Assembly (NCBI GenBank): GCA_022013205.1
Contig: JAKLQT010000198.1
Location: 1-55,769 of the forward strand
DNA: 55,769 bases
Direction of reading: 5' to 3'
DNA from: Candidatus Omnitrophota bacterium
GTDB lineage: Bacteria; Omnitrophota; Gorgyraeia; B26-G9
This document shows, piece by piece, positions 3,229 to 27,841 of this stretch (within the stretch, counting starts at the first letter, position 1; every line of letters begins with the position of its first letter). The notes under the pieces are model-generated. The model saw only the letters and a list, made by a program, of their open reading frames with translations, did not search any database and was not told the DNA's origin. Position numbers and translations under genes: made by a program.

Positions 3229-4239
3229 ATGAAAAAAATAAAAGCGGTTTTTGTTAAATACATGTCATTGTTTATAGCCGGATTCTCAATAAGAAAAATT
3301 ACCAACTTTTGCAAGGTTATGTTGTCCTATTTTTTAAGAAAAACTAAAGTTTCCGGATTGCCTTTTTTGCTGCAGATAGAACCGACTAATAGATGTGATC
3401 TGCGCTGCAGCTTGTGTCTTACGGGCGCAGGAAAACTGAAAAGGTCAAGAGGGGATATGAGTTTTAAACAATTCAAAAACATCGTAAGTCAGCTTCAAGC
3501 TGGTTTGATTTACATTGTTTTGTACAATTTGGGTGAGCCTTTGTTAAATCCCGATATCTATCAGATGATTAAATACGCAAAGAAGAAGAGAATATTTACC
3601 AGATTAAGCACTAATGCTAATTTCAGCGATAGGGCGCATATAAAGAGCATATTAACTTCTGGCCTTGATGAACTGGTGATTTCTCTTGATTGCGCTTCTG
3701 AAGAGACCTACCGTGCATATAAAAAAAGTACTGATTTTTGTCGAGTGCTGGACAATGTAAGTTTATTAATTAAAGAACGAGGACAAAGGCTAAAACCGTT
3801 TATAAATCTGCAATTTCTTTTAATGGGTTCAACGGAACAAGAAATAGATGAGTTTAAGAAGTTAATCAAGGATCTTGGGGTGGATAAAGGATTAATAAAA
3901 AAGGTGCGGGTTGATTATTTTGCGGAAAAACCGGAGTATGGACTTTTGCCTGAAAATAAGAAGTTTCATAGAGATATTTACAGGGGAAAAGGGAAAAAGA
4001 ATCCCTGCGTTCGTCCCTGGATATCTACCTTGGTGCTTTGGGATGGTGTTGTTGTGCCGTGTTGTTTTGACATGGAAGGTGATTTTATCCTGGGCAATGT
4101 TAAGGGTGGAAAAATCACCCGGATTTGGAATGATAAGGAGTATATGAATTTACGCCATAAAATTGCCAGTAAATCGAATTCCGCTGAGTTATGCCGGCAA
4201 TGCAGCCTAAAGAATTTCAGCAGTAATTTCATTAAATAA
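3229..4239 (+). CDS. Radical SAM enzyme with C-terminal SPASM/twitch-like Cys-rich domain
   Basis: CxxxCxxC motif in IEPTNRCDLRCSLCLTG; NLGEPLL glycine-rich SAM motif. C-terminal CVRPW...WDGVVVPCCFD...GNV...ELCRQCS is typical of SPASM domains. Confidence 0.85.
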   Translation: MKKIKAVFVKYMSLFIAGFSIRKITNFCKVMLSYFLRKTKVSGLPFLLQIEPTNRCDLRCSLCLTGAGKLKRSRGDMSFKQFKNIVSQLQAGLIYIVLYNLGEPLLNPDIYQMIKYAKKKRIFTRLSTNANFSDRAHIKSILTSGLDELVISLDCASEETYRAYKKSTDFCRVLDNVSLLIKERGQRLKPFINLQFLLMGSTEQEIDEFKKLIKDLGVDKGLIKKVRVDYFAEKPEYGLLPENKKFHRDIYRGKGKKNPCVRPWISTLVLWDGVVVPCCFDMEGDFILGNVKGGKITRIWNDKEYMNLRHKIASKSNSAELCRQCSLKNFSSNFIK

Positions 4240-4382
4240 ATCATTTTAGCCCCGCATATATATAGGATAAAAAAGTGAAAATTCTTTACTTCTTTAACGG
4301 CTTGTAATATCATAAGTTTTCTAACTTACTAATTATTAATTGGTTATCAAAATTACAACTATACAAAGGGACTTATTTGGTA

Positions 4383-5777
4383 ATGAAAATACTAGTTGCT
4401 AACCTGCCTAGTTTTAAAGGCAAAAAGTTTATTAAAGAAGGCCGCTGCAGCCAGTCTAAAAAAATCTGGAATACTATCTGGCCGCCGTATTCCTTGGTAT
4501 CTATTGCTGCAGTATTAGAAAAATTAAGCCATGAGGTAAAGATTTTTGATTATCCGGCAATGAAATCAAGAGAAGCGGACTTTTTTTCTTTTATCAGGGG
4601 TTTTTCTCCTGAAGTAGTGATTGCAAGTTGTACAACTCCAACAGTGTATGATGATTTGGAAGCTTGTTTAAAAATAAAACAGATTTTACCCGGAACTAAA
4701 ATAATTATCTTTGGTATCCATGGCTCTATTTTTTCACAGGCATTGCTTAAACAGCATGCGTTTATAGATTTTATTATACGGGGAGAGCCTGAGTATACAA
4801 TAAGGGAATTGATCGAGGCTTTATCTGGTAACCAGAAAGTTAAATTTGAGAATATTAAAGGGATTAGTTTTCGTTTTCAGGGAGAAATTATTAAAAACCA
4901 GGATCGTGAGCTTATAACAAATCTGGATGATTTGCCAATTCCGGCATGGCATCTCGTAGATGTAAAAAGATATAAACTCCCGATATTGGGTAAGCCTTAT
5001 TTAATGATTGTTCCCGGCCGTGGTTGCGTGGATAAATGCTTATTTTGTTATGCGCATGCTTATTATGGGCAGAAAAATAGAAGACACTCTGTTAGAAGAG
5101 TAATTAATGAGATAGTGTTTAATAAAAAAGAATTTAAAATTGATCACTTTTTCTTCTGGACGGAAAATTGCACCCAGGATAGAAAGTTTTTAATGGATCT
5201 CTTAGACCAGATGATAGAGCTAAACCTTAATGTGAAATGGGCATGTAATAGCAGGGTTGATACTATTGATTTTGAGCTTTTGCATAAGATGAAGATAGCC
5301 GGATGTCTGATTGTAGCTTTTGGAGTTGAATCAGGAGAGCAGCGAATATTAGATATTTCTAAAAAAAATATAAACCTAAAACAAATAGAAAATGCCTTTT
5401 ATTTAACACATAAAGCAGGAATTCAATCTATTGCTAACTGCATGTTCGGGCTGCCGGGTGAAACGATAAAATCCATGAAAAAGACAATGAAATTTTTAAA
5501 AAAGATAAATCCTACCTATGCCCAATTTTATATGGCAGTTCCAAGGCCGGGCTCTGAATTTTATGAATTAGCTCAGAAAGAAGGATGGATACAGACAAAT
5601 GATTGGGGAAAGTTTCATCAAGGAGATTATGTTTTAAATATTAATGGCCTAAGCAGAGATGATATTGTTAATTTCAGGAAGAGAGCTGGTATATTGTTTT
5701 ATCTCGATTTTAAAAGGCTTGCTGGTATTTTGATCAATCTTTTTAAGGCTTTTTTCAGGGGTAGGCAAAAGGCATAA
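4383..5777 (+). CDS. Class B (B12-binding-domain) radical SAM enzyme
   Basis: N-terminal Rossmann-like B12-binding-type region (ILVANLP..., VVIASCTTPT, IIIFGIHGS). rSAM motif VPGRGCVDKCLFCYA, then FGVESG...GLPGET. The ORF track starts at TTG 4377; the ATG at 4383 (MKILVANL) is preferred. Confidence 0.85.
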   Translation: MKILVANLPSFKGKKFIKEGRCSQSKKIWNTIWPPYSLVSIAAVLEKLSHEVKIFDYPAMKSREADFFSFIRGFSPEVVIASCTTPTVYDDLEACLKIKQILPGTKIIIFGIHGSIFSQALLKQHAFIDFIIRGEPEYTIRELIEALSGNQKVKFENIKGISFRFQGEIIKNQDRELITNLDDLPIPAWHLVDVKRYKLPILGKPYLMIVPGRGCVDKCLFCYAHAYYGQKNRRHSVRRVINEIVFNKKEFKIDHFFFWTENCTQDRKFLMDLLDQMIELNLNVKWACNSRVDTIDFELLHKMKIAGCLIVAFGVESGEQRILDISKKNINLKQIENAFYLTHKAGIQSIANCMFGLPGETIKSMKKTMKFLKKINPTYAQFYMAVPRPGSEFYELAQKEGWIQTNDWGKFHQGDYVLNINGLSRDDIVNFRKRAGILFYLDFKRLAGILINLFKAFFRGRQKA

Positions 5778-5783
5778 AAATCT

Positions 5784-7394
5784 ATGGGAATATTAGTAAT
5801 TTTTATTCTAATAATGATGTTTTTTTTACCCTCTGCTTTAAAAAAAATGGTTCACTGGAAACTAATCGTACCGTTTTTTTTTATTAGCTGTTTGGCGATT
5901 TCTAATATTGGAGTTTTTGATCAATATAGTTTTGTTGATCCTGATCTTTATTTCCATAAATCACTCGTGGATAAATTATTGGATAAACAGCTTTTTATAA
6001 ATGACGAGGCAATAAAGTTTTATTCCGAAATCTACCCTAAAGGGTATCAGTATCTTTTGTGTTTCTTGAGCAATTTTAATTTAAGTATTCCTCAAATTTC
6101 AAAGCTGCTGGGAATCATTCTTTCTTCCATCATTCCGTTTTTATTTTATTTTTTGGGAAAAGAAATATATCAGGATCGCAAGCTTGCTTTTTTTAGCGGA
6201 CTTTTTTGCGTTGTGGTGCCTATTTGGGAATTTATTTATGCCGGCTTGCCCAGGAGTATTGCCTTTGTTCTTTTTATATGCCTTTTGATATATTTATTTA
6301 AGTATTTAAATTCCCAAGGGAAGATTAGTTTTATAATATTATTAAATATTATTATGGCATTAATATTGTTTGTACATCCCTATACTTTTATTATTGCGTG
6401 GTTTATTTCAATTATATTTTTTTCTTTGGTTGTTTTCGGCAAAAGGGGAAAAAATAGAAAAGTACACATCAGTGCTTTGCTCATTTTTGGTTTGTATCTG
6501 GTGTTGTTTTTTATATTTAAACAAAAAGGTACGCTTACACTAAGCACTTGGGACTTTTTTCATAGCCATAATGATATATATTGGGAGAGAGTGCCTTATG
6601 CTTTTGTAAATTTTTTTAATCTAGTCAAGGAAATCGGGGTTTTACCGATTCTGATGTTTATTCTGATGCTTATTAAATATTATATTCGACCTGAAAAAAT
6701 GGTTAAATATCCCGGCCTGACTATTTTAATTTGTTGCACTTTTTTTTTAATGGCGCTTTTAGTTATTGTTGTTAATGTTAACGGGTTGTTTTTTTTAAGA
6801 GCTCATCGTTTTCCGCCTTTTATTTCATCATTGTTGTATTTGTCCAGCCTTTTAGTTTTAAAAGATTTATGGGCTAAGTTTTCAAGTAACAAAATATCAG
6901 CACCGCTTTTTTGTTTGATACTTTTAAGCCCTGGCATGGAACATTTAGCGAAAGAACTTCAATATCGGAAATTTCCTTATGATTTGAAGGTAGGGGTTGG
7001 GACACATAAGGAAACACAAAATACTCAGGTTACATTTAATGAAATCCTTAAATTAGCTGATTATGTGGACAAAAATATTCCTAAAAATGAAATAATTGCG
7101 TGTACTTTTGATAAGGGGGATATTCTTAGAATGCTTTCGCGAAGGGCAGTTACGGCTTCCTGGAGAATCGGGGGAATGATCACAGTTTATAAAGAACCGC
7201 TTTATATTTTTAAAGAGCAGAAAACTAATTCTAAAATGCTATATGATAATCCGGCCTATCTATACGATAAATATGGAGCAAGATTTTTTTTATTTGAAAA
7301 AGACAGGAGGACTGATATGGCGGTACTAGGGCCTGAATTCCATTTAATTTGGGAAAGTGAAAATTTGTATTTTTATGAAATCAGGAGTTTGTAA
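5784..7394 (+). CDS. Polytopic membrane protein, GT-C-like (paralogue 2 of 2)
   Basis: 536 aa with the same architecture as 1387..3003 and long identical blocks. First-loop motif FVDPDLYFHK. Confidence 0.8.
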   Translation: MGILVIFILIMMFFLPSALKKMVHWKLIVPFFFISCLAISNIGVFDQYSFVDPDLYFHKSLVDKLLDKQLFINDEAIKFYSEIYPKGYQYLLCFLSNFNLSIPQISKLLGIILSSIIPFLFYFLGKEIYQDRKLAFFSGLFCVVVPIWEFIYAGLPRSIAFVLFICLLIYLFKYLNSQGKISFIILLNIIMALILFVHPYTFIIAWFISIIFFSLVVFGKRGKNRKVHISALLIFGLYLVLFFIFKQKGTLTLSTWDFFHSHNDIYWERVPYAFVNFFNLVKEIGVLPILMFILMLIKYYIRPEKMVKYPGLTILICCTFFLMALLVIVVNVNGLFFLRAHRFPPFISSLLYLSSLLVLKDLWAKFSSNKISAPLFCLILLSPGMEHLAKELQYRKFPYDLKVGVGTHKETQNTQVTFNEILKLADYVDKNIPKNEIIACTFDKGDILRMLSRRAVTASWRIGGMITVYKEPLYIFKEQKTNSKMLYDNPAYLYDKYGARFFLFEKDRRTDMAVLGPEFHLIWESENLYFYEIRSL

Positions 7395-7410
7395 CAAATA
7401 ATAATTTTTT

Positions 7411-8109
7411 ATGGCAGAAGAAAAAAAACGAATAGCGATTATGCAGCCCGGTTATTTACCGTGGCTTGGCTTTTTTGAGTTAATGTATAACTGTGACCTG
7501 TTTGTTTTTTTAGATGATGTGCAATACACAAAAAGGGATTGGCGAAATAGAAATAGGATTCGAACACATAATGGGTGGCAGTGGCTAACGGTACCTGCAT
7601 TTAACAGAAATAAACGAGAACAATTGTTAAAAAATGTGCAAATTAATAACCAAATTAATTGGCAAAAACAGCATTTTAATGCCTTAAGGATTAATTATAG
7701 AAAAAGTAAGTTTTTTGACTCCTTTTCCCTTGAATTAGAAAGTATCTATTTTAAAAGCTGGGATAATCTTTTAGAATTAAATATTGAGTTAATTTTATAC
7801 TTAGCTAAAATGTTTTCAATTGAAACTCCGTATATATTTTCTTCTAGTTTGAATATTAAAAACACAAAATCTGAACGTATTTTAGAGATATGTAAGCTGC
7901 TTAATGCTAATGAGTTATATGATAGTAAAGCAGCATCAAACTTTCTGGATTTATCTTTATTTGAAAAGGAAAAGATAACGGTAAAGTTTCAGGATTATCG
8001 CCATCCTGTGTATGAGCAGGTATATAAACCGTTTATTGCTTATTTGTCGGCAATTGATTTGCTATTTAATTGTGGGGCAGAATCTTTGAAGATTATTCTG
8101 GGAGAGTAA
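7411..8109 (+). CDS. WbqC-like family protein (O-antigen/polysaccharide cluster-associated)
   Basis: N-terminus IAIMQPGYLPWLGFFELM...FVFLDDVQYTKRDWRNRNRIRT..GWQWLTVP matches the WbqC-family signature as I remember it. Confidence 0.7.
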   Translation: MAEEKKRIAIMQPGYLPWLGFFELMYNCDLFVFLDDVQYTKRDWRNRNRIRTHNGWQWLTVPAFNRNKREQLLKNVQINNQINWQKQHFNALRINYRKSKFFDSFSLELESIYFKSWDNLLELNIELILYLAKMFSIETPYIFSSSLNIKNTKSERILEICKLLNANELYDSKAASNFLDLSLFEKEKITVKFQDYRHPVYEQVYKPFIAYLSAIDLLFNCGAESLKIILGE

Positions 8110-8174: not shown

Positions 8175-9071
8175 ATGCTAAAATCAAGAATATTAAAGCT
8201 ATTTTTTGGTGAAACGGCGCTAGTTTATAAAAAGAAAATGATTAATGGCCTGAAATTTGGTGCCGTGAGCCTTTTTTTAACTTTATTAACTAATGGCATA
8301 GTCTTTGCCACAAACATTGATGAGTGTTTTAGGCTTTGCTCTCCCAAAGTTGGACAATTCGCAGAGTACCAAGTAATTTATCATATCAATCATGGGAAAG
8401 AAAATAGATACAGAATTGCAATTGTCGGAAAAGAAATAGTAAAAAATAAGGATTTCTTTTGGATTAAATTGGATATGTTTAAAAATAAAAACAGAAAGAT
8501 TTCTTTTAAGGCCCTGGTGAGGCCTTTAAGTAGCGCGGTTTTTAAAGATAATCCAAAAAGTTATATCAGTGAAGGCCTATTGGTTTTGTTTAAAAGCGCG
8601 GAAAGGATTATTGTGATTTTAGAAAATGACCTAAGTTATGAATTGCGGCCTGAAGAATTATTTTTCCAACCAGATATTTTTAATAACACATTCTATATGC
8701 AAACGCCTGATGCAAAGAATAAGACTGATTATTCAAAATTAAAATTTTCAAAAAAAATTGAAAAACTTAATATTCCGGCAGGCACTTTTGATTGTTATTG
8801 GTTTGGGGTTGATACACAGATATGGGAGCCTTATGATGAAGAAGGCATTGACTTATGGAGATCGGCGGCTGTTCCTTTTTTAGGCATAGTCCAAATGGCA
8901 TTTTCGAAGACTAAGAGTGTAGAAAAATGGGATTATAGTTATTCTAAACTAATGCTTGATAAAAACTGGTGGGAAAAGATATTCATCCATTTTTTTAAAG
9001 CGCGGGTGCCGCGTGATGAAAAATATCAAGACACCTTTGTTATGAGATTGACTGATTATGGAATAGAATGA
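8175..9071 (+). CDS. Hypothetical exported protein
   Basis: Internal Met at 8238 gives a classical signal peptide (MINGLKFGAVSLFLTLLTNGIVFA/TNIDE). The remainder is soluble and no family was recognised. Confidence 0.6.
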   Translation: MLKSRILKLFFGETALVYKKKMINGLKFGAVSLFLTLLTNGIVFATNIDECFRLCSPKVGQFAEYQVIYHINHGKENRYRIAIVGKEIVKNKDFFWIKLDMFKNKNRKISFKALVRPLSSAVFKDNPKSYISEGLLVLFKSAERIIVILENDLSYELRPEELFFQPDIFNNTFYMQTPDAKNKTDYSKLKFSKKIEKLNIPAGTFDCYWFGVDTQIWEPYDEEGIDLWRSAAVPFLGIVQMAFSKTKSVEKWDYSYSKLMLDKNWWEKIFIHFFKARVPRDEKYQDTFVMRLTDYGIE

Positions 9072-13596: not shown

Positions 13597-13825
13597 GCCC
13601 GGATTAAGTTACTTTTTAAAAAGCAGCCAGTATATTAAAACAAAATCGCTTGTTTATTTGAATATTAATACCATTTGTGATAACAGAAAAAGGGATTTTA
13701 AGATATGCAAAAATTGTATCTATAAACTTTTCTTTAAGACTGATGACGGACAACTGCGTTGTAGAGGAACCGGGGCAGATGTTAGCGATTGGCTTCTTAA
13801 TGAGTTTAAAGTGCCGAATAAGTAG
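13589..13825 (+). pseudogene. C-terminal remnant (about 78 codons) of a fifth Tes/MJ0619-like radical SAM paralogue
   Basis: A stop-to-stop frame reads GDRPGLSYFLKSSQYIKTKSLVYLNINTICDNRKRDFKICKNCIYKLFFKTDDGQLRCRGTGADVSDWLLNEFKVPNK*. It aligns residue for residue with the end of ORF 15503..16873 (KGLSFFKKNNRYLKTNSFIYLNVSTTCDNHKIDYKITRNCIFGMVFKGKDGILRFRGTGADMCDAL). There is no N-terminal part and no start codon. Confidence 0.75.
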
Positions 13826-20876: not shown

Positions 20877-21416
20877 AAATCAGAGCTGAGTAATGAGAGG
20901 ATTAAGCAGTTCATTTGTTCAGCAAAGGCATGTGGAGTTAACGCGGCTTTGTTTATGAGTGATGCTCTTGTAAACACTACTAAAAAAGAAAGAAAGATAT
21001 CTTTGGCATTTGAAAGGCACTTAAAACGTTTCAATAAACGTATTAAATTTTTCAGGACAACACTCTTAAACGAAGTGGACCCGGGATCTCCTGTTTTTTT
21101 GAATCCTGAGCCGTATCGTGTCAGGTTATCGCGTAGACATTTTAAGGATTTTTACCTGGACCATAGCAGACAAAAATCAAGTTTTGGTTTTAAGAATAGT
21201 GAAAACACTGCTTCTTGTAAACAACAGATTTTTGTATATACAAGAGGGTTATATGCCTTGTTTTTTTATTGGTTAATTGTTTTTCCTTTTTTTGAACTTT
21301 TTCTTAAGTGTTACATATTAATTTGCAATAAAAGACATATCAAAAAAAACTATTTAGTGAAAAGGCGATCAGGCTCAAGGGGGATTAGCACCTATGAGTT
21401 CAAAAGGATAAACTGA
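20877..21416 (+). CDS. Continuation of the same reading frame: C-terminal part of the interrupted class B radical SAM gene (ORF track 20949..21416)
   Basis: Same frame as 19833..20876 (both starts are divisible by 3). Translation after the TGA reads KSELSNERIKQFICSAKACGVNAALFMSD...LLNEVDPGSPVFLNPEPYRV. This aligns with the ...KQIENAFYLTHKAGIQSIANCMFGLPGET...PRPGSEFYE region of 4383..5777. Its stop overlaps the next ATG (TGATG at 21414-21418). Confidence 0.6.
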   Translation, partial: KSELSNERIKQFICSAKACGVNAALFMSDALVNTTKKERKISLAFERHLKRFNKRIKFFRTTLLNEVDPGSPVFLNPEPYRVRLSRRHFKDFYLDHSRQKSSFGFKNSENTASCKQQIFVYTRGLYALFFYWLIVFPFFELFLKCYILICNKRHIKKNYLVKRRSGSRGISTYEFKRIN

Positions 21417-22474
21417 TGCGGGAAAGAATTGAAAATTCATCTTCTTTTATTGGAGTAAAAGAACGAAAAGCGCTAAATGCGGTTTTGAAGAGCAATTTTT
21501 TAGCTGAAGGGCCTCAAACGGAGAAGTTTGAGCGTGAATTTGCTGAGTATATCGGATGTCGTTTTGCGATCGCGGTAAGTTCAGGAACAACCGCTTTGCA
21601 TTGTGCGTTGATAGCCTTGGGTGTAGGCGTTGGTGATGAGGTGCTAGCGCCTAACTATACCTGTCGTTCTATTCTCAACGCGGTTCAATATGCTAATGCT
21701 AAGCCAGTTCTTTGCGACGTTGATAAGAGGACTTTTAATATTTTACCCCAGGAAGCTTGTAAAAAGAAAACCTCAAGGACTAAAGCGGTTATCATCGCTC
21801 ATATGTTTGGCTGTCCTGCTTCGGTTAAAGAATTTCGTAAAATTGGAGTTCCGATTATTGAAGATTGTGCTCAGAGCATAGGCGCTGAGTATAATGGAAA
21901 ACTGGCGGGCAGTTTTGCCGATATGGCAATATTCTCTTTTGAAGGGACAAAGACAATTACTACCGGAGAAGGGGGGATGGTTACCACGAATTCTGCCCGG
22001 TTAAAGAAGCGTTTTGATGCTATAAAGGAGCCTTACGGAAAAGATTTTATGCCTAAATATACCTATCGAATGAGTGATCTTCAGGCAGCGGTCGGCTGTG
22101 TCCAAATAAAAAGGCTGCCGGAATTTATCCGAAGAAGAGAACAAATCGCCAGGCAATATATGAATGCTTTTGGTAATGATGAAAGAGTTCAGCTTCCATT
22201 TATCCCAAAAGGCGCGCGGCATACTTTTCATCGTTTTATTCTTACTCTAAAGGAGCCAAACTTAGACCAGTGTCTTAGAAAATGCCAAAAAAAAGGAGTT
22301 ATGGTCAAAAGAGCGATTAAGCCGTATGTGCTTAATCAGTATCTGAATATTTCTGATAGAGCCTTCCCCAATACTCAATATATAATGAAGCATTGTGCTT
22401 CTGTACCGATTTATCCTGCGCTTAAAAACCAGGATGTTAAAAAGGTAATAGATGCCCTAAAGGGGGCATTATGA
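21416..22474 (+). CDS. DegT/DnrJ/EryC1/StrS-family PLP-dependent sugar aminotransferase/dehydratase
   Basis: FEREFAEYIG..FAIAVSSGTTALHCALIALGVGVGDEV..PNYTC...; active-site lysine context FSFEGTKTITTGEGGMVTT; MSDLQAAVG. Confidence 0.85.
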   Translation: MRERIENSSSFIGVKERKALNAVLKSNFLAEGPQTEKFEREFAEYIGCRFAIAVSSGTTALHCALIALGVGVGDEVLAPNYTCRSILNAVQYANAKPVLCDVDKRTFNILPQEACKKKTSRTKAVIIAHMFGCPASVKEFRKIGVPIIEDCAQSIGAEYNGKLAGSFADMAIFSFEGTKTITTGEGGMVTTNSARLKKRFDAIKEPYGKDFMPKYTYRMSDLQAAVGCVQIKRLPEFIRRREQIARQYMNAFGNDERVQLPFIPKGARHTFHRFILTLKEPNLDQCLRKCQKKGVMVKRAIKPYVLNQYLNISDRAFPNTQYIMKHCASVPIYPALKNQDVKKVIDALKGAL

Positions 22475-23433
22475 AAATGATTCAGGGTAAATACGGCTTT
22501 AGAGATCAGCGTGAACAGCAGTTTCCCCTGATGGTTTGCCTGGAAATAACAAATGTGTGCAATTTGCGCTGTATTCATTGTCCTTATTCAGAAATTTCAA
22601 AACGCGAGGGATATATCCCTGAATTTATGGAATGGCTTGAGGCGAAAAAGGTCATTGATGATATAGCTGTTTTCCCTGATACAATAGTGCGTTTTGTTTG
22701 TGACGGTGAGCCGATGATGCATCCTGATTTTATGCAAATTGCCGAATATGCTAAAAAAAGCGGGATTGAGTCAATAGGAGTTACAACAAACGGAATGTTC
22801 TTAAATGAGGATAAGGCAAAAAAACTAGTTAAATTAAACTGTGATATTATAGAGGTTAGTATCGATGCTCTTCATAAAAGTACTTATGAGAAGATCAGGC
22901 GAGGAGGCGATTTTGATCTGGTCATTAAAAACACATCAAAATTGATAGAACTGCGTGATATTTTGAATAAAAAGGTAAAAATCATAGTAAGCATCATCGA
23001 TCAGCCTGATGTCAGCCATGAAATAGAGGAGTTTAAAAAGTACTGGCAGGGCAAAGCGGATAAGGTGCTAATTAGAAAGCTGACAAGCATCGGCGGCCTG
23101 GTGGACAACATAAGCGGGGAAAATAAAAAGACAAGTGCTGTATCGAGATGGCCGTGCCCTTTATTATGGAGAAGAATGTTCATTAATGTCGGCGGGCTTG
23201 CTGAATTTTGTGTTGATGACTGGCTTGATGAATCGGTTGTCGGCGATGCGCGCAAAGAGAGCCTGAGGGAGATCTGGAACTGCCAGGCGTATCAGCAATT
23301 GCGGCATGCGCATTTAAAAAAGGAATTCAGCCTTAATAAAAAATGTGAATTTTGCGTTGACTGGCCGGCAAGGACATGGGAATGTGATTATTTAAGCGCT
23401 TTGGAATCTTTGGGGATTAAAAAGTATGAATGA
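22471..23433 (+). CDS. Radical SAM enzyme with SPASM/twitch-like C-terminal domain
   Basis: LEITNVCNLRCIHCPY; CDGEPMMHPD. C-terminal WPCPLLWRRMFINVGGLAEFCVDDW...KKCEFCVDW. The ATGA overlap with the upstream DegT gene suggests translational coupling. Confidence 0.85.
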   Translation: MKMIQGKYGFRDQREQQFPLMVCLEITNVCNLRCIHCPYSEISKREGYIPEFMEWLEAKKVIDDIAVFPDTIVRFVCDGEPMMHPDFMQIAEYAKKSGIESIGVTTNGMFLNEDKAKKLVKLNCDIIEVSIDALHKSTYEKIRRGGDFDLVIKNTSKLIELRDILNKKVKIIVSIIDQPDVSHEIEEFKKYWQGKADKVLIRKLTSIGGLVDNISGENKKTSAVSRWPCPLLWRRMFINVGGLAEFCVDDWLDESVVGDARKESLREIWNCQAYQQLRHAHLKKEFSLNKKCEFCVDWPARTWECDYLSALESLGIKKYE

Positions 23434-24793
23434 TTTTTCTGATTGCCGGATAATATATGAGACAAAGGGATTATGCCCGGTTTGCTGCCAGTGGGTTGAT
23501 GCTCAGGCAATTGAAAATTGCGGTAAGGTTTTTTTGCGGAAAACTTGCCCTGAACATGGCCAATCAGACCTGTTGATATGCGGCGATGCTTCATCTTTTC
23601 GGCAGTTAAGAGAGGCTTATCTTATAACCCATAATGAAATATTCCCCCAGTCACGTTATTTGCTGTATTTAACCCCTGTTTGTAATATGTCATGCCCGAT
23701 ATGTTTTTTGAGCCGGCAGAAAGATCAAAAGCAGGATATTACTCTTGAAGAGCTTAATAAAACTTTATCAACGCCAAAGAGGGAACTTATCCTGTTTGGG
23801 GCAGAACCTACCTGCCGTGAGGATCTGCCCCAAATAATTGAGTTTCTCAAAAGAAGACAATTTTCGGTTAGTTTATACACTAATGGGCTGAATTTGTCTG
23901 ATTTAGAATATGCCAAAGTAATCAAAGCGGCAAATGTGGATAAGATTTATTTTCAATTTGACAGTTTTAATGATGAAGTATATGAGAAGCTGCGGCAGAA
24001 AAAGTTATTGGATATAAAAAATAAAGCATTAAACAATCTGAAATTATTAGATATTCCGGTAGTTTTGGACATTACTGTAGTAAATGATTTGAACGATCAT
24101 GAAGTGGGCAAGATCTTTGATTTTGCCTGCAGGCAAAATCATATAAGCGCTCTGAATTTTATCGCTTATGTGCGCTCCGGAGGCGGTAGTGAGTTTCTAA
24201 ATGATAATGTGTTAATGCCGGATGATATCATCAAGCGCATAGGGGATTACACGCAGGGCAGGATAAATCGTGATAAAATCAAGGTATATCAAAAGCTCCT
24301 ATATATTTATATGTCGATATTAAAACGCCGTACGTGTTTTTATATCCAGTATTTCTGGGTGTATCGCAGGGATGAGGGCGAATATCTTACACTTGATGAG
24401 ATTATTGATTTTGGAAAACTTGATAATGTGCTGGACGGATATCTCAGGCTTGCCCCTAAAACAGGGAAGATGTTTGCGATCGCATACCTGGTTTTTAAAT
24501 CACCAGTCCTTTTATTTGCCCTTAAACAGAGACGGATATGTTTTGAAATGTTCAGGATGGCATTCGCGCACAGCTTTAATAAGGCAGAGTATGCGAAGAA
24601 AAGCAGTAAATTTCTGCAGCTTATTTTCACAACCGCATGCGATCCTTATAAGTCTGATATAAATATTGCTAAACGCTGCCATGTGGGAATGATCTACAAA
24701 AATGATCAGGGTGAGCTCAAAATAGATGATGAAAACGGGATGTACTTATTGCAAGAAGAGATAAACAGTAAAATAATGTCAGGTAAAATATAA
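23426..24793 (+). CDS. Tes/GDGT-MAS (MJ0619)-like radical SAM enzyme, paralogue 4
   Basis: CPVCCQ...CPEHGQ; LTPVCNMSCPICFL; LFGAEPTCREDL; TNGLNL; FQFDSFN; C-terminal ACDPYKSDINIAKRCH. Confidence 0.8.
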   Translation: MNDFSDCRIIYETKGLCPVCCQWVDAQAIENCGKVFLRKTCPEHGQSDLLICGDASSFRQLREAYLITHNEIFPQSRYLLYLTPVCNMSCPICFLSRQKDQKQDITLEELNKTLSTPKRELILFGAEPTCREDLPQIIEFLKRRQFSVSLYTNGLNLSDLEYAKVIKAANVDKIYFQFDSFNDEVYEKLRQKKLLDIKNKALNNLKLLDIPVVLDITVVNDLNDHEVGKIFDFACRQNHISALNFIAYVRSGGGSEFLNDNVLMPDDIIKRIGDYTQGRINRDKIKVYQKLLYIYMSILKRRTCFYIQYFWVYRRDEGEYLTLDEIIDFGKLDNVLDGYLRLAPKTGKMFAIAYLVFKSPVLLFALKQRRICFEMFRMAFAHSFNKAEYAKKSSKFLQLIFTTACDPYKSDINIAKRCHVGMIYKNDQGELKIDDENGMYLLQEEINSKIMSGKI

Positions 24794-24794
24794 T

Positions 24795-26396
24795 ATGCGT
24801 GTCGGATTTGTTTACTCAGAAATGGAAACCCTGGGCGTTGAACATCTCTCCAGCTATCTTAAAGAGCAGGGACATCAGACCACCTTATTCTTTGATCCTC
24901 AGTTATTTAATGATACGGTTTCCCGCAGTAATGCCTTTAGCCGGATATTTGGCTATCAGAAAAGGCTTATAAGGCAGATCATTGAATGGAAACCGGAGAT
25001 TCTGGCATTTTCGGTATTAAGCACGAATTATTTATGGGCGAAAAATTTGGCCCAACAGATAAAATGTGTAATGGATATCCCTATTGTTTGGGGAGGTATT
25101 CACCCTACATTGTCGCCGGAATCCGTCATCGAGCTTGATTTTGTTGACTTTGTCGTTGTGGGCGAGGGGGAACAGGTATTACTTGAGCTGGTAGAAAACC
25201 TCGGTAGTGAAAAACGGCTGCAAACCACAGCTAATCTATGGTCAAAAAAAGACGAAATTATATTCCGCAATGCCGTAAGGCCGCTTATTGACGATCTGGA
25301 TTCGCTGCCTTTTCCTGATAAAGGTATGTTTTACAGCACTATGCCTTATTTGAGCAGGCATTACACGATTGTAACAAGCCGCGGGTGCCCGCATATGTGT
25401 ACTTTTTGCTGTAATCACACATTAAGCAATCTAAGCGGGGGAAAAGAAAAGTTTTTACGGCGCAGATCCGCGGAAAATGTTATCGCCGAGCTTAAGCAGG
25501 CTCAGGAGCGTTATAAAATTGAAGATGTATTCTTTGATGATAGTACGTTTACTTATGATAAAAATTGGCTGAAATTATTTTCACAATTATATAAAAAACA
25601 TATTAATCTGCGCTGTTTTTGCTGGGTTTATCCCGCGGAGGTCGATGAAGAAACAGTGCGCTATTTAATTGATATGAATATCCAGGCAGTGGAAATGGGG
25701 GTAGAATCTTTAAACCCGCATGTTAGGAAAAAATGGCTGCGCAGGCCTCATTCTAATAAAAAGATCCAAAACGCGCTCGCTCTTTTTAAGAAAAACAGGA
25801 TATTTGTTACTGTAGATAATATCGTGGGATTACCGGAAGAGACAATAAACGACTTGGAGCATATGGCAGATTTCTATAACCGCACGCGCCCGGAAAAAAT
25901 CTACATTTTTGAATTAAGGCCTTTCCCTAATACAGATATGTTTACTTTATATTCTGAGTATAAGAAGAATTATAGCGCTGACAATAAGGAACTGCTGCCA
26001 TTTACTCTGTCTTCAACAAGCAATAAGGCCTATAAGCAGATAACCGCGCTTGTTTGCCTGATCCATCTTCTTCCTGTAAAGGCGGTTAAAATGCTGCTTG
26101 CTAAAAAATGGTACCGCAAATTACCGGCAATAGACATGTATAATCTTTTAGAAATAGTGCCTTTTTTTATTAATTTTTTAAAGCCGGCAAAACATAAGAG
26201 ATGGTTTCCTATAAGAGGTACGCGGCACAGATATTTCTTCTTCGGGAGTAAGATTGTCAGGGAGTTTCTTCTAAGTATTTCTTCAGATAAACTGTTAAAA
26301 AAAATAAGATCATTTTTTCTCTTGATTAAAGGCGAAAAAAAATATTCTGTTATCCAAAATAAACCATCAGGCAATGTCACGGGAGTTGATAAATGA
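24795..26396 (+). CDS. Class B (B12-binding-domain) radical SAM enzyme
   Basis: MRVGFVYSEMETLGVEHLSSYLKEQGH...; IVWGGIHPT; VVGEGE; rSAM motif VTSRGCPHMCTFCCN; MGVESL; GLPEET. Confidence 0.85.
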   Translation: MRVGFVYSEMETLGVEHLSSYLKEQGHQTTLFFDPQLFNDTVSRSNAFSRIFGYQKRLIRQIIEWKPEILAFSVLSTNYLWAKNLAQQIKCVMDIPIVWGGIHPTLSPESVIELDFVDFVVVGEGEQVLLELVENLGSEKRLQTTANLWSKKDEIIFRNAVRPLIDDLDSLPFPDKGMFYSTMPYLSRHYTIVTSRGCPHMCTFCCNHTLSNLSGGKEKFLRRRSAENVIAELKQAQERYKIEDVFFDDSTFTYDKNWLKLFSQLYKKHINLRCFCWVYPAEVDEETVRYLIDMNIQAVEMGVESLNPHVRKKWLRRPHSNKKIQNALALFKKNRIFVTVDNIVGLPEETINDLEHMADFYNRTRPEKIYIFELRPFPNTDMFTLYSEYKKNYSADNKELLPFTLSSTSNKAYKQITALVCLIHLLPVKAVKMLLAKKWYRKLPAIDMYNLLEIVPFFINFLKPAKHKRWFPIRGTRHRYFFFGSKIVREFLLSISSDKLLKKIRSFFLLIKGEKKYSVIQNKPSGNVTGVDK

Positions 26397-27841
26397 AAGT
26401 GGCTTTTGTTAATAATTCAAATGAGAGCCTAGGCGTGGAATATCTCTCGGCATATTTGAAGCAGCATGGGCATTGCGCGCAGGTGTTTGTCGATCCTCAA
26501 TTATTTAACGATGAAAATATTAGAGCTGAATTTTTGCATCGTTTTTTTGATTACAAAAAAAATCTTGCGCGGGATATTCTTGCATATTCCCCTGATATAA
26601 TCGGATTTTCCGTAGTAAGCGATTTCTATCCTTGGGCATGCCTTCTGGCCGAGGAGATCAAAAGAAATTGCAATATCCCGGTTATTTTCGGAGGCATTCA
26701 TCCGACCACAATGCCGCAGGAGGTTATTAATAACAGTTTCGTGGACATGATTTGTATAGGCGAAGGTGAACAGGCGCTTCTTGAGGTGGTTGAAAAATTA
26801 CAGGCAGGGGGGTGGCCGGATGAGGTAGCTAATATATGGGTAAAAAGCTCCGGAAAGATCAAAAGAAATGGCATAAGGCCGCTGATAAAGAATCTTGATT
26901 CATTGCCTTTTCCTGATAAGATATTATTCAGTGAAGCTGGCCCTCATTATGATATCGGCTATTTTACGATGGCCAGCCGGGGTTGTCTTTACCGATGTTC
27001 ATACTGTCATAATTCGTACCTGGGCAAGCTTTATAAAGAATATGATTACTATAGATACCGAAGCGTAGAAAACCTTATCAGTGAGCTGGAGGGCGGATTT
27101 TCGAAAAAAAAACACAGGATAATCCGGTTTTCTGACGATATATTTCCTTTTGAAAAACAATGGCTGAGTGAATTTTCTCTTAAATATCCTAAACGTATAG
27201 GAGCCCCGTTTATCTGCTATATACATCCTCAAACAACGGATGAAGAAACGATCAGTCTGCTTAAAAAAAGCGGCTGCTGCGAAGTTCAGATAGGAGTCCA
27301 GACCCTTTATGAACGAACTCAGAAAGCTGTTTTAAATCGCGATATAAAACAGGAAAGATGGGAGGATCTTATCAGCCAGATCAAAAAATGCGGCATGGCC
27401 ATTACCGCGGAGAATATAATCGGTATCCCCGGACAAAGTGAAAATGAAGTAAAGGATATGGTTAGATTCTATACGCGTAACCGTGTTAACCGGGTGCATA
27501 TATTCTGGCTGCGTTATTATCCTAAAACCGATATAAGTAATCGGTTTAAAGAGCATGATTCAGAGCATACGCAAAGGCCGTTTACAATGGGCGGAGATGT
27601 TTTTAAAAAGGAAATGGTAAAGTTAAGAATACTTTTTAGCCTGGCTCAACTTTTTCCAATGACTGTGATTGATTTTTTTCTCAAAAAAAGGGTTTATTAC
27701 TTTATGCCTGTTTGGCCGTTGTTCCTTATAAATATATTTTCCAATATCACAAGCGGCACATATTCAGATAAGATTACGCGCAGGAGAGAAAAAACAAAAT
27801 ATTTGTATTATATCAGGAAAAGATTATGGCAGAAAAACTGA
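26393..27841 (+). CDS. Class B (B12-binding-domain) radical SAM enzyme
   Basis: MKVAFVNNSNESLGVEYLSAYLKQHGH...; VIFGGIHPT; CIGEGE; rSAM motif MASRGCLYRCSYCHN; IGVQT; GIPGQS. Start overlaps the upstream stop (ATGA). Confidence 0.85.
   Translation: MKVAFVNNSNESLGVEYLSAYLKQHGHCAQVFVDPQLFNDENIRAEFLHRFFDYKKNLARDILAYSPDIIGFSVVSDFYPWACLLAEEIKRNCNIPVIFGGIHPTTMPQEVINNSFVDMICIGEGEQALLEVVEKLQAGGWPDEVANIWVKSSGKIKRNGIRPLIKNLDSLPFPDKILFSEAGPHYDIGYFTMASRGCLYRCSYCHNSYLGKLYKEYDYYRYRSVENLISELEGGFSKKKHRIIRFSDDIFPFEKQWLSEFSLKYPKRIGAPFICYIHPQTTDEETISLLKKSGCCEVQIGVQTLYERTQKAVLNRDIKQERWEDLISQIKKCGMAITAENIIGIPGQSENEVKDMVRFYTRNRVNRVHIFWLRYYPKTDISNRFKEHDSEHTQRPFTMGGDVFKKEMVKLRILFSLAQLFPMTVIDFFLKKRVYYFMPVWPLFLINIFSNITSGTYSDKITRRREKTKYLYYIRKRLWQKN

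Follow-up and report, generated by a model that had tools for sequence, protein, structure and literature searches.

Thirteen radical SAM (rSAM) enzymes of three classes are encoded together with sugar-transfer genes in one operon-like island, and no described pathway matches this combination. The initial annotation recognized none, and neither a full-text literature search nor a review from 2026 on rSAM enzymes that modify lipids yielded a description of such an island. The window, the stretch of 55,769 nucleotides that was analyzed, is the whole contig of a Candidatus Omnitrophica MAG from an uncultured anaerobic bacterium. The system had been placed at 3229-27841; the rSAM genes lie there, but the island itself spans 30-32441, from the contig start, and its genes are tightly packed in one direction. 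The best explanation, to which we give about an even chance, is anaerobic radical tailoring of polyprenyl-phosphate-linked sugars followed by transfer to the envelope. The island has the following features.

30..518, +, PMT_2-type GT-C membrane glycosyltransferase, C-terminal end (gene cut by the contig start)
1387..3003, +, polytopic membrane protein of about 10 TM segments, DUF6541 (PF20176, 32.4 bits, cut-off 29)
3049..3162, +, spacer remnant, MoaA-like rSAM gene (38 aa)
3229..4239, +, rSAM with SPASM domain, SPASM-a (Radical_SAM 60.6 bits, SPASM 55.3 bits; CDLRCSLC at residue 56)
4377..5777, +, B12-binding rSAM, HpnJ-like (B12-binding 52.2 bits, Radical_SAM 71.8 bits)
5784..7394, +, polytopic membrane protein, DUF6541-type, second of two (weak DUF6541 match)
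7411..8109, +, WbqC-family protein (PF08889, 254.7 bits)
8175..9071, +, signal-anchored beta-rich protein, unk290 (no Pfam or NCBIfam match)
9086..11014, +, 642-aa membrane protein, 12-13 TM segments by TM estimate; candidate GT-C/YfhO-like transferase (weak)
10968..12002, +, MoaA-like rSAM with Cys-rich C-terminus (Radical_SAM 83.5 bits, Fer4_12)
12079..13596, +, B12-binding rSAM, subgroup B12-A (Pfam)
13601..13801, +, C-terminus remnant of a fifth zinc-ribbon rSAM gene (tblastn)
13916..15493, +, B12-binding rSAM, BchE-like (Pfam; BchE model 162 bits, cut-off 481)
15503..16873, +, zinc-ribbon (rubredoxin-type) rSAM, Tes-related (Zn_ribbon_HMPTM 53.1 bits, Radical_SAM 83.6 bits)
16917..18266, +, zinc-ribbon rSAM, Tes-related (Pfam)
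18297..19688, +, zinc-ribbon rSAM, Tes-related (Pfam)
19833..21416, +, B12-binding rSAM, TIGR04190/Ta0216-like, with C-terminal TM helix (one in-frame TGA)
21416..22474, +, DegT-family sugar aminotransferase, DegT-a (PF01041, 304 bits)
22471..23433, +, rSAM with SPASM domain, SPASM-b (Pfam)
23426..24793, +, zinc-ribbon rSAM, Tes-related (Pfam; B12-A gene immediately downstream)
24795..26396, +, B12-binding rSAM, subgroup B12-A (Pfam)
26393..27841, +, B12-binding rSAM, subgroup B12-A (Pfam)
27826..28587, +, small GT2 glycosyltransferase (Glycos_transf_2, 74.3 bits)
28584..29801, +, DegT-family sugar aminotransferase, DegT-b (PF01041, 415 bits)
29764..30777, +, GT2 glycosyltransferase, GT2-b (Glyco_tranf_2_3, 49.2 bits)
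30774..32441, +, Wzy_C-domain membrane protein, O-antigen ligase/polymerase-type, TPR repeats at the C-terminus, last island gene (Wzy_C 75.5 bits, cut-off 31.7; TPR matches)

Profile searches upheld the 13 rSAM genes of the initial annotation, with one start moved from 4383 to 4377. All 13 plus-strand ORFs between 3229 and 27841 match the Radical_SAM profile and carry one CX3CX2C motif each, and 12 exceed the Pfam gathering score. The exception, 19833-21416, is a single reading frame with a lone in-frame TGA at 20874-20876. The truncated ORF scores only 18.7 bits with Radical_SAM; readthrough of the stop gives 183 bits (E = 7e-54) with the B12/rSAM family TIGR04190, and the orthologue in related locus L006 is intact (507 aa) with glycine at the TGA position. 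None of the rSAM enzymes reaches an NCBIfam curated cut-off. If rSAM genes are assumed to make up 1-3% of genes, the binomial probability of 13 in 21 consecutive genes is 2e-21 to 3e-15. The contig is not an assembly artefact: two independent Logan assemblies match parts of it at 99.9-100% identity. An unrelated 14th rSAM gene lies outside the island at 52562-53965.

The island has a G+C content of 31-40%, compared with about 40-43% in the adjoining dcw genes. A terminator-like hairpin (32450-32469) lies just past the last island gene and a promoter-like site (32798-32826) upstream of mraZ. Both rSAM fragments previously noted in spacers are real. The 3049-3162 translation matches an interior stretch of the L014 14864-15856 rSAM with 74% identity (E = 1e-13). 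The 13601-13801 segment encodes the last 67 aa of its gene and is 57% identical to the C-termini of 15503 and L004 15777-17129 (E = 3e-24); L004 has five intact zinc-ribbon genes. These remnants, the lowered G+C and a gene content that varies between genomes show that the island behaves like a variable surface-glycan-type locus.

The B12-binding domain scored above its cut-off in all six ORFs to which it had been assigned (4377, 12079, 13916, 24795, 26393 and the interrupted 19833). The best NCBIfam model for 4377 is HpnJ (235 bits, full length; cut-off 577.6), its best solved relative is AprD4 (6fd2, E = 5e-23) and its L015 orthologue is 71% identical. For 24795 the best model is TIGR04072 (110.6 bits, cut-off 360) and the best solved relative is again AprD4 (E = 5e-13). 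Within subgroup B12-A, 26393 is 38% identical to 24795, and 12079 is 31-34% identical to both. Orthologues of 12079 occur in L004, L006 and L007 (47, 44 and 39% identity) and those of 26393 in L006 and L007. The 13916 enzyme is among the best conserved of the island (67% identity to L004, 66% to L006 orthologues).

Zn_ribbon_HMPTM and rSAM domains occur together in four ORFs (15503, 16917, 18297 and 23426), which bears out the Tes-like architecture claimed for them. Their identification as Tes was rejected. Scores against the Tes model are 143-166 bits (15503, 166 bits) with a cut-off of 450, and none of the four enzymes has the Tes-defining N-terminal [4Fe-4S] cluster, Met439 or Tyr459. They are a subfamily apart from Tes that resembles it in architecture only. 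The best solved relative of 16917 is GDGT-MAS (7TOL, E = 1e-32, residues 13-297), and its Omnitrophota orthologue P0001 is 55% identical. The 18297 enzyme is 61% identical to L004 11388-12755, and 23426 is 59% identical to L004 19198-20547, a gene likewise upstream of a B12-A gene. A strongly hydrophobic segment near residues 350-372 in three zinc-ribbon enzymes and the C-terminal hydrophobic TM helix common to 19833 and its L006 orthologue suggest membrane association.

The SPASM domain was above cut-off in 3229 and 22471, two of the three genes originally placed in a SPASM/twitch class. The third, 10968, has no Pfam SPASM match and is MoaA-like (100 bits against the archaeal MoaA model, cut-off 325); as nine cysteines lie in the final ~95 residues (positions 251 to 329), the class assignment is plausible. 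SPASM-a has orthologues in L004 (48% identity) and L015 (57%). DegT-a precedes SPASM-b in most loci (L004, L007, L013, L015, L016, L017 and L023). L021 has SPASM-b without DegT, so acting as a dehydrogenase with an aminotransferase cannot be its only role.

As first noted, the non-rSAM partners are exclusively glycan or envelope genes: two sugar aminotransferases, two GT2 enzymes, WbqC, several polytopic membrane proteins and the Wzy_C/TPR protein. The two DegT proteins are closest to nucleotide-sugar aminotransferases. DegT-a, whose 3' end overlaps the next gene's start by 4 bases, scores 240 bits against the PseC model, and its best solved relatives are sugar aminotransferases including perosamine synthetase and ArnB. 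DegT-b scores 355 bits against ArnB and 349 bits against PseC, both under the cut-offs. The small GT2, conserved in L006, L007, L014 and L021, is a candidate polyprenyl-phosphate sugar transferase; its best solved relatives (ArnC, E = 5e-11; dolichol-P-mannose synthase; GtrB) are all polyprenyl-phosphate glycosyltransferases. GT2-b is 62% identical to its L014 orthologue, likewise upstream of a Wzy_C/TPR gene; the Wzy_C/TPR protein of the island has about 9 TM segments.

GT-C enzymes use lipid-phosphate-linked donors. The truncated 30-518 protein matches the C-terminal part of a 524-aa L017 protein (59% identity in 162 aa) and is 36% identical to the L015 2940-4508 protein, which itself matches PF13231 PMT_2; intact PMT_2 GT-C genes are present in L009, L015 and L017. 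The 1387-3003 protein is 74% identical to L017 7363-8979. Its paralogue 5784-7394 (50% identity) is 51% identical to an L015 orthologue that also lies downstream of SPASM-a and HpnJ-like genes. WbqC orthologues occur in L004, L007, L013, L015 and L017, and the WbqC AF2 model (pLDDT 93.9) has no fold neighbour in the PDB. The YfhO-like label first given to 9086-11014 is weak: an L004 paralogue, 37% identical to the protein, has a precomputed YfhO match that is itself weak, and none of eight family members has a Pfam match. The unk290 gene is always directly upstream of this 600-aa membrane protein. A word-index search of 5.8 billion proteins found only 10 unk290 homologues, and all named ones are from Omnitrophota; its AF2 model is poor (pLDDT 54).

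The same kit, with differing gene numbers, occurs in at least ten other loci, all of those with an organism name being Omnitrophota. The compact core that recurs consists of SPASM-b, B12-A, zinc-ribbon, unk290, 12-TM protein and small GT2, and L021 carries it without DegT or WbqC. Identity among the rSAM paralogues is 22-40%, and for most of them a 1:1 orthologue exists elsewhere at 35-68% identity (35-68% in L004). By these comparisons the paralogues are old, and the possession of its own orthologue by each indicates specialized, maintained functions. P0257 is a B12-A enzyme fused to a zinc-ribbon enzyme of the 23426 type. This fusion, and the adjacency of the two genes in the window and L004, indicate that B12-A and zinc-ribbon enzymes probably act in one pathway.

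The initial interpretation, radical C-C or C-methyl tailoring of either a membrane lipid or a polyprenyl-linked glycan, drew on family resemblance and is partly supported, with the evidence favouring its glycan half. Tailoring of lipid-carrier sugars is suggested by the glycan-type partners (both DegT proteins, small GT2, PMT_2 GT-C, Wzy_C and WbqC), the recurring core, the B12-A/zinc-ribbon fusion, the paralogues with their own orthologues, the signs of membrane association and the surface-glycan-like variability. AprD4 and HpnJ, the nearest solved structure and the nearest family model for B12 enzymes of the island, also act on sugars; HpnJ is implicated in conversion of lipid-linked glucosamine to a cyclitol (PMC13459092). 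Several results point the other way. Profile searches found no flippase, initiating phosphoglycosyltransferase or nucleotide-sugar dehydratase encoded within the window. The small GT2 has no TM segment by TM estimate and so differs from ArnC and GtrB in lacking their TM or interface helices, and its matches are modest (ArnC model 52 bits, cut-off 529). The DUF6541 and 12-TM proteins are GT-C candidates, and neither has a PDB relative. We know of no rSAM enzyme that acts on a polyprenyl-phosphate-linked sugar, and the same three rSAM classes form the archaeal/bacterial lipid-tail toolkit (Tes, Grs/Gmm, Gms).

This last point leads to the main rival, which we consider unlikely: remodelling of the cell's own membrane lipids, with rSAM enzymes acting on hydrocarbon tails (tail-to-tail or cross-chain C-C coupling, ring formation, methylation) or on head groups (sugar-to-cyclitol conversion). 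Tes, Gms/Hbs, Grs, Gmm/Hgm, Cds and HpnJ are precedents, and the GT2 and aminotransferases would serve to assemble the head group of a glycolipid. The three classes mirror known lipid-modifying rSAM classes, the zinc-ribbon enzymes have the tetraether synthase GDGT-MAS as best solved relative, and HpnJ and the ladderane-associated TIGR04072 are the best models for 4377 and 24795. Mss and Hbs homologues are reported from Omnitrophota, and GDSL lipases, a CMAS-like methyltransferase and U32-family proteins are encoded in related loci. The missing Tes-defining features argue against this rival, as do the remaining lipid-family matches, all far under cut-offs. No acyl carrier protein, Fab, acyltransferase, ether-lipid or isoprenoid gene was found in any locus read, whereas ladderane clusters are defined by such neighbours; the constant partners here are glycosyltransferases, aminotransferases and GT-C-like proteins. 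More doubtful still is a diffusible aminoglycoside-, aminocyclitol- or nucleoside-like metabolite made by the sugar-modifying rSAM logic of Actinobacteria. It would account for AprD4 of the apramycin pathway as best solved relative of two B12 enzymes, glutamine:scyllo-inositol transaminase as second-best of DegT-a and BtrN among the weak matches of SPASM-b, and rSAM-DegT pairing recalls 2-deoxystreptamine pathways. It fits poorly with four or five large polytopic membrane proteins and Wzy_C/TPR conserved in the locus, the predicted membrane anchor of 19833 and the absence of an exporter, resistance gene, regulator, cyclase or kinase from profile searches of the island. Least probable, and very much so, is maturation of a ribosomal peptide or surface (glyco)protein encoded elsewhere. 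SPASM and B12 rSAM enzymes commonly serve as RiPP maturases, and the ApyD, TIGR03975 and WgkB RiPP models are among the weak NCBIfam matches, all far under cut-offs. The island, in agreement with the initial annotation, held no peptide precursor, transporter, regulator or conserved small ORF, and no RRE domain, protease or ABC exporter. Its spacers are short, both of those long enough for a peptide gene hold the rSAM remnants, and the sole small-ORF translation conserved in other loci is itself such a remnant.

For tailoring of lipid-carrier sugars, we infer the lipid-carrier substrate, the individual reactions, the acceptor and the need for cobalamin. An (amino)sugar would be synthesized by the DegT aminotransferases and the ArnC/DPMS-like small GT2 and attached to polyprenyl phosphate on the cytoplasmic side of the membrane. 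The 13 rSAM enzymes would then tailor the membrane-bound sugar. rSAM enzymes can functionalize unactivated C-H bonds without oxygen. In the manner of AprD4, HpnJ or Cds, the B12 class may catalyze C-methylation, dehydration or ring contraction. The SPASM class may catalyze epimerization or oxidation, the latter giving a keto group for the adjacent DegT to aminate, like the BtrN-aminotransferase pair. The zinc-ribbon class could perform C-C coupling or another reaction in a hydrophobic pocket. Transfer or ligation of the products to acceptors in the envelope would then fall to PMT_2, the two DUF6541 proteins, the 12-TM protein together with its periplasmic partner, and Wzy_C/TPR. This scheme resembles the three-component lipid-carrier systems ArnB/ArnC/ArnT and CsbB(GtrB)/YfhO. 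The island would differ from them in its multiple branches and in the exceptional extent of its radical tailoring.

The 13 radical-SAM (rSAM) ORFs listed in the initial annotation are all present, and each contains one CX3CX2C motif that is kept in the orthologues from other loci. All long ORFs of the window are on the + strand, and the ORFs are named here by their start coordinates. Profile searches placed 12 of the 13 above the Pfam Radical_SAM gathering score of 29.5 bits (PF04055, 31.8 to 93.7 bits). The truncated 19833 ORF scores 18.7 bits, and reading through its stop codon gives a match of 183 bits (E = 7e-54) to the B12/rSAM model TIGR04190. None of the island's rSAM proteins reaches an NCBIfam curated cut-off. 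With an assumed rate of 1 to 3% rSAM genes, the chance that a run of 21 genes includes 13 of them is 2e-21 to 3e-15 under a binomial model.

The division of these ORFs into three classes held with one exception. Six ORFs (4377, 12079, 13916, 19833, 24795, and 26393) have a PF02310 B12-binding domain N-terminal to the rSAM core (44.5 to 65.2 bits, cut-off 32.1), and cobalamin binding and use are predicted from this domain. The closest solved relative, AprD4, is of this fold as well. An Rfam scan of the window gave no match, hence no cobalamin or SAM riboswitch was detected. Four ORFs (15503, 16917, 18297, and 23426) contain the Zn_ribbon_HMPTM domain that defines the zinc-ribbon type. The SPASM/twitch assignment stood for 3229 (SPASM-a, 3229-4239; PF13186, 55.3 bits) and 22471 (SPASM-b, 22471-23433; 41.9 bits; cut-off 21.5) but not for 10968-12002, which has Fer4_12 and MoaA-like matches and nine cysteines at residues 251-329 and no SPASM match. 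A 14th rSAM gene (52562-53965) lies outside the island. It encodes a Radical_SAM_N2 plus rSAM protein resembling TIGR03960 (238 bits, cut-off 462), and genes for a histidine kinase, a T2SSE/PilT-like ATPase, and an HD-domain response regulator are located next to it.

The rSAM genes occupy 3229-27841 as proposed, but the island is larger and extends from 30 to 32441. The genes that widen it at the 5' side and the paralogue of one of them are as follows, where DUF6541 is a Pfam family of unknown function:

30-518, + strand: C-terminal end of a PMT_2-type GT-C protein, assigned by homology and cut by the contig start
1387-3003, + strand: DUF6541 membrane protein, 5' of the first rSAM gene, above the Pfam cut-off
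5784-7394, + strand: DUF6541 paralogue, 50% identical to 1387-3003

A gap of 868 bp (519-1386) separates the truncated PMT_2 gene from the first DUF6541 gene. It contains no ORF of 40 aa or more, gives no match in Rfam, and is similar to the related loci neither in protein nor in DNA sequence. The only non-rSAM genes inside 3229-27841 are those for the DUF6541 paralogue, WbqC (7411-8109), a signal-anchored 298-aa protein (unk290, 8175-9071), a 642-aa protein with 12 to 13 hydrophobic segments (the 12-TM protein, 9086-11014), and a DegT aminotransferase (DegT-a, 21416-22474). The unk290 protein is identical to NCBI protein L6416_08485 from a Candidatus Omnitrophica MAG. The last rSAM gene is followed by a small GT2 (27826-28587), a second DegT (DegT-b, 28584-29801), a second GT2 (GT2-b, 29764-30777), and a Wzy_C/TPR membrane protein ending at 32441 (30774-32441; Wzy_C domain 75.5 bits, cut-off 31.7). 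Overlaps or gaps of 16 bases or fewer account for 15 of the 23 junctions between island genes. Promoter and terminator scans are uninformative on operon structure because their counts match those in shuffled sequence; the exceptions, both plausible, are a terminator-like hairpin after the island (32450-32469) and a promoter-like site (32798-32826) before mraZ. The latter gene opens a dcw cluster that starts at 32853 (mraZ, mraW, PBP, murE, murF, mraY, murD, ftsW, murG, murC, murB, ddl, ftsQ, and ftsA). G+C content rises stepwise from 31 to 34% (1-12 kb) through 35 to 40% (12-28 kb) to about 40 to 43% in the dcw genes, which points to separate acquisition or exchange of parts of the island. Such a pattern is typical of variable surface-polysaccharide loci.

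Family profile searches bore out the statement that no transporter or regulator is among the island ORFs, and no acyl-carrier, Fab, or isoprenoid gene is in the island. The 1-32441 region has no small multi-TM ORF or transporter family of the GtrA or ArnE/F flippase type, and neither a Wzx flippase nor an initiating phosphoglycosyltransferase is among its ORFs. The sole GT4/MraY-type gene of the window is part of the dcw cluster, and an initiating transferase and a sugar dehydratase are both absent from the window. The DegT proteins are nearest to ArnB, PseC, and perosamine synthetase, which are nucleotide-sugar aminotransferases. Among solved structures, the small GT2 is best matched by ArnC, dolichol-phosphate-mannose synthase, and GtrB (E = 5e-11 to 5e-6); it scores 51.8 bits with the ArnC model (cut-off 529) and has no TM helices. 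DUF6541 and the 12-TM protein are candidate GT-C transferases. A Pfam scan (E ≤ 1) of eight 12-TM family members gave no match, and PDB sequence searches with WbqC, DUF6541, and the 12-TM protein also gave none. A conserved C-terminal membrane helix is present on one B12 enzyme (19833-21416), and three zinc-ribbon enzymes have a strongly hydrophobic segment. The AF2 model of unk290 (pLDDT 54) was too poor for a structure search. The WbqC model (pLDDT 93.9) had no Foldseek neighbor in the PDB (best E = 0.012; best TM 0.23 among the lowest-E-value matches), and WbqC, whose family has at least 7876 homologues in a protein search, may have an unsolved fold.

The 19833 gene is interrupted, as had been noted: 19833-20876 and 20949-21416 belong to one frame that is broken by a single TGA at 20874-20876. 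The intact orthologue in L006, a JGI metagenome locus, is 507 aa long and has Gly at the position aligned with the TGA. Because this residue is Gly and not Cys, selenocysteine was rejected, and a GGA-to-TGA point mutation or a sequencing error is the more likely origin of the stop. Both rSAM fragments said to lie in the spacers also exist:

3049-3162: MoaA-like rSAM remnant of 38 residues, 74% identical to a gene of the related locus L014
13601-13801: remnant of a fifth zinc-ribbon rSAM gene, its last 67 residues (E = 3e-24)

The independent Logan assemblies SRR35106544 and SRR11548473 contain 4.8-kb and 1.6-kb stretches of the island, one with 100% identity and the other with differences solely in homopolymer run lengths; the island sequence is therefore real, and single-base errors are possible. 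The Logan contig L001 differs from the window in homopolymers at 19588, 20356, 20432, and 20437 (T8/T9, A5/A6, T5/T7, and T6/T7), which shifts the frames of 18297-19688 and 19833-21416 in the L001 assembly. Differences of this kind are typical of long-read errors, here in one or the other assembly. The murE gene of the dcw cluster (36487-37964) is split into overlapping ORFs in different frames (36487-37605 and 37581-37964), and the junction has no long homopolymer. Since MurE is essential, the split reflects either an erroneous frameshift or a true pseudogene.

A genome-neighborhood analysis found each close relative of the zinc-ribbon enzyme 16917 in a similar array. These relatives are very few. 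The nearest is 55% identical and comes from another Omnitrophota MAG, the next are 42, 36, and 31% identical, and beyond them the matches fall to generic Tes-like proteins with ~30% identity over 60% of the length. A scan of the GTDB species representatives, a set that does not include the source genome, returned solely an unrelated 28% match from Cyclobacteriaceae. The related loci are listed here:

L004 (GCA_043826565.1): 11 rSAM genes in 21 kb with WbqC, DegT, unk290, and the 12-TM protein
L006 (JGI metagenome): related multi-rSAM array
L007 (GCA_964585045.1): related multi-rSAM array
L009 (JGI metagenome): at least eight rSAM genes, three GT2, DegT, and PMT_2
L013/L016, L014/L018, L015, and L017: related arrays, located through unk290 as a marker
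L021 (JGI 3300038673): compact core
L023 (Omnitrophica WOR_2 type, on at least 24 contigs): 11 or more rSAM genes within 15 kb

Several gene orders recur among these loci: SPASM-a, an HpnJ-like B12 enzyme, and DUF6541; WbqC followed by unk290 and the 12-TM protein; and DegT-a, SPASM-b, and zinc-ribbon enzymes. The small GT2, GT2-b, and Wzy_C/TPR genes form a recurring sub-module. Judged from sequence, the island is one conserved system. Paralogue identities in the window are 30 to 40% for the four zinc-ribbon enzymes, 31 to 38% for the B12-A subgroup (12079, 24795, and 26393), and 22 to 28% to any other for the remaining B12 enzymes. For 11 of the 13 rSAM genes, L004 contains a separate orthologue (35 to 68% identity) that is always closer than any paralogue. 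Recent tandem duplication was rejected as the source of the 13 genes on these grounds, the paralogues being 22 to 40% identical and having separate orthologues. Because orthologue identity exceeds paralogue identity, the 13 are specialized, maintained enzymes rather than a recent amplification. The number and mix of rSAM genes vary between genomes, and the window carries two remnants, so the locus is modular and in flux.

A 950-aa protein, P0257, is a natural fusion of a B12-A-type and a zinc-ribbon enzyme. Enzymes of these two types are also encoded side by side in L004 and in the window, where 23426 is followed after one base by 24795. The fusion is encoded in L021 together with SPASM-b, homologues of unk290 and the 12-TM protein, a zinc-ribbon enzyme, a B12-A enzyme, the small GT2, and a further large unknown protein. 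This locus lacks DegT and WbqC, spans roughly 12 kb, and is taken as the putative minimal core of the kit. Peptidase_U32-family proteins and GDSL-type esterases occur in related loci (L006 11469-12365, L009 19236-20288, L004 3276-4388, L014 1603-2493, and L021 6266-6838) and are absent from the window; the U32 family has O2-independent hydroxylases among its members. L006 also has a CMAS-like SAM methyltransferase.

The zinc-ribbon enzymes had been called Tes-like. The architecture is common to both, but membership in the tetraether synthases (Tes, GDGT-MAS) failed on score and on cluster residues. GDGT-MAS is their best solved relative (MJ0619; PDB 7TOL; E = 1e-32), and the four score 166, 157, 145, and 144 bits with the Tes equivalog NF045702, whose cut-off is 450. 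The Tes-defining features were taken from the structure paper (PMC9433317) and checked on an alignment with archaeal Tes-type sequences. The N-terminal auxiliary [4Fe-4S] cluster of Tes is bound by C73, C77, C80, and a His, and both Met439, the labile ligand of the C-terminal cluster, and Tyr459 are fully conserved in 1000 archaeal homologues (PMC9433317). The island enzymes keep the rubredoxin motif CX2CX20CX2H, the rSAM core, and two cysteines of the C-terminal cluster; C19, C22, C43, and H46 (16917 numbering) are invariant in 11 sequences. Unlike Tes, the four window proteins and the ten orthologues aligned all carry a deletion of the GCPxDCGxC segment, the Met439 column holds Ser, Val, and other residues, and the Tyr459 column has no Tyr in any of the four. 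The subfamily has also lost the third cysteine of the C-terminal cluster and has a new, near-invariant Cys in a TxCD motif three residues past the Met439 column. Tes membership was rejected on the missed cut-off, the deleted N-terminal cluster segment, and the replacement of Met439 and Tyr459. The zinc-ribbon enzymes have the Tes architecture yet probably catalyze another reaction.

A profile of the zinc-ribbon subfamily had 1359 matches (E ≤ 1e-30) in 1.84 billion representative proteins. A single CX3CX2C motif is present in 127 of the 148 top subfamily matches, near residue 80 to 90 in the full-length ones, whereas the generic Tes-like matches of 16917 mostly have two. Because of this difference, the zinc-ribbon enzymes are assigned to a subfamily of their own, which at 50% identity has well over 100 representatives. 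Genomic context and motifs were contrasted with those of the 488-aa archaeal Tes-type protein P0009 (L011 10001-11467, and L012). Its gene is ~5 kb from a PcrB (GGGP synthase family) gene and stands as a single copy beside lipid genes in L011, whereas the island zinc-ribbon genes occur in two to five paralogous copies beside glycan genes. Four proteins of the zinc-ribbon rSAM group (P0297, P0299, P0371, and P0386) are fused to an N-terminal hemerythrin domain, and P0386 to a P-type ATPase as well; these fusions are absent from the island.

The island is classed as an envelope glycosylation locus, and its rSAM load and Tes-derived subfamily have no characterized counterpart. We consider the chances about even that it encodes a multi-branch lipid-carrier glycosylation pathway with anaerobic rSAM tailoring. 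Polyprenyl phosphate would be loaded with (amino)sugars, rSAM enzymes would tailor the loaded sugars without oxygen, and polytopic membrane proteins together with the Wzy_C/TPR protein would transfer them to envelope acceptors. Beyond the presence and linkage of the gene families, every step is one that we infer. A lipid-carrier pathway is favored because the constant partners are glycan genes, at least one of which (PMT_2) is of a fold with lipid-phosphate-linked sugar donors, because one B12 enzyme is membrane-anchored, and because three zinc-ribbon enzymes have the hydrophobic segment. Its weak points are that the flippase, initiating transferase, and sugar dehydratase are not in the window and that the small GT2 is without a membrane segment. 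A more tentative proposal is that the Tes-derived subfamily and the B12 and SPASM enzymes form C-C bonds and carbocycles anaerobically on sugars bound to the lipid carrier. The resulting envelope sugars, without known counterpart, would be branched, extended, or of the cyclitol type, and the chemistry, part of a kind of pathway not yet described, would be a lineage trait of ultra-small, host-dependent Omnitrophota.

Remodeling of membrane lipids is a serious alternative that we nevertheless consider unlikely. The three rSAM classes of the island are those of the Tes, Grs/Gmm, and Gms lipid toolkit, and Mss and Hbs homologues are reported from Omnitrophota, but the zinc-ribbon enzymes fail the Tes test and the island, in contrast to ladderane clusters, has no lipid-synthesis neighbor. 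A diffusible aminoglycoside-like product is improbable, as export and resistance genes are missing and membrane proteins are abundant in the island. The least probable reading, for which we see very little chance, is RiPP or protein modification. In agreement with the initial annotation, no precursor was found next to the rSAM genes; among the small spacer ORFs, only the translation of an rSAM gene remnant is conserved in related loci. The locus is not described in the literature on Omnitrophota, WbqC, YfhO, TIGR04190, PF23545, and Mss, of which coverage was incomplete, nor in a 2026 review of lipid-modifying rSAM enzymes. The suggestion that it matches no described pathway thus stands as far as this coverage reaches, and because the coverage is incomplete, this negative is absence of evidence only.

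The locus is a conserved, compact, and clonable kit, represented by the L021 core, and is directly testable. Anaerobes functionalize inert C-H bonds mainly with rSAM enzymes, and new rSAM subfamilies have each tended to bring new chemistry; Tes reportedly was the first enzyme for sp3-sp3 coupling. Here, a new Tes-related subfamily of more than 130 representatives at 50% identity has lost the features tied to tetraether synthesis, and a natural fusion couples it with a B12 enzyme. Genetic context points to lipid-carrier-bound sugars as the rSAM substrates, a substrate class for which we know of no rSAM enzyme. The island would surprise specialists in radical-SAM enzymes or glycobiology. Omnitrophota are an uncultured phylum of very small cells that are abundant in groundwater and anoxic water columns. 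Their surface presumably mediates host contact, and the locus would be the first handle on their envelope. Should lipid remodeling prove true, orphan membrane-lipid biomarkers of anoxic settings would have a candidate source in this locus.

The island resembles several known systems in part. Ladderane clusters of anammox Planctomycetes, which are PVC relatives, share with it the clustering of several uncharacterized rSAM and B12-rSAM genes in an anaerobic PVC-group bacterium, and TIGR04072 is the top model for 24795. That match reaches 110.6 bits against a cut-off of 360, and the ACP, FabZ, FabF, and phytoene-desaturase neighbors that define ladderane clusters are all absent from the island. 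The aminoglycoside rSAM enzymes are another likeness: the sugar-modifying AprD4 is the closest solved relative of 4377 and 24795, and translational coupling links an island rSAM gene to a DegT aminotransferase gene, which recalls the Btr pathway and its pairing of BtrN with an aminotransferase. Identity to the enzymes of such pathways (AprD4, BtrN, and GenK) is low, with 109 bits against 500 for the AprD4 model and E of about 1e-4 for BtrN, and no other genes of these pathways are present in the membrane-bound context of the island.

The lipid rSAM toolkit (GrsA/B, Gmm/Hgm, Gms/Hbs, Cds, HpnJ, and HpnP/R) has the same three rSAM classes that are co-located in the island. It provides precedents for clusters of several such genes and for the contraction of a lipid-linked sugar ring to a cyclitol. 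The differences lie in the scores (HpnJ, 235 bits against 577.6; HpnR, at most 83 bits against 650) and in the island neighbors, which are glycosyltransferases and aminotransferases. Gms differs further in having a COG4001 domain at its N terminus and in lacking a rubredoxin domain. Organisms with Mss are reported to have no Tes homologue by BLAST, and Mss is therefore not of the zinc-ribbon type. The 235-bit match of 4377 to the HpnJ model TIGR03471 covers the full length; HpnJ membership was rejected on the missed cut-off and on the lack of an SHC or HpnH gene in the window, HpnJ domains being reported solely from genomes with SHC and HpnH.

Lipid-carrier glycosylation systems of three components are the remaining comparison. 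To our knowledge, no such system has been described with interposed rSAM enzymes, and none was found in the literature searched. As in ArnB/ArnC/ArnT, which adds L-Ara4N to lipid A, the DegT proteins are nearest to ArnB/PseC models, although the ArnB and ArnC cut-offs are missed and the island has no flippase, formyltransferase, or deformylase. The small GT2, with ArnC, DPMS, and GtrB as its best solved relatives, is a candidate counterpart of ArnC and of the GtrB or CsbB that acts with a GT-C such as YfhO, and a PMT_2-type protein and other polytopic membrane proteins share its operon-like array. Unlike the Arn and Gtr systems, the island has several candidate transferases, not one, and 13 rSAM enzymes are interposed in it.
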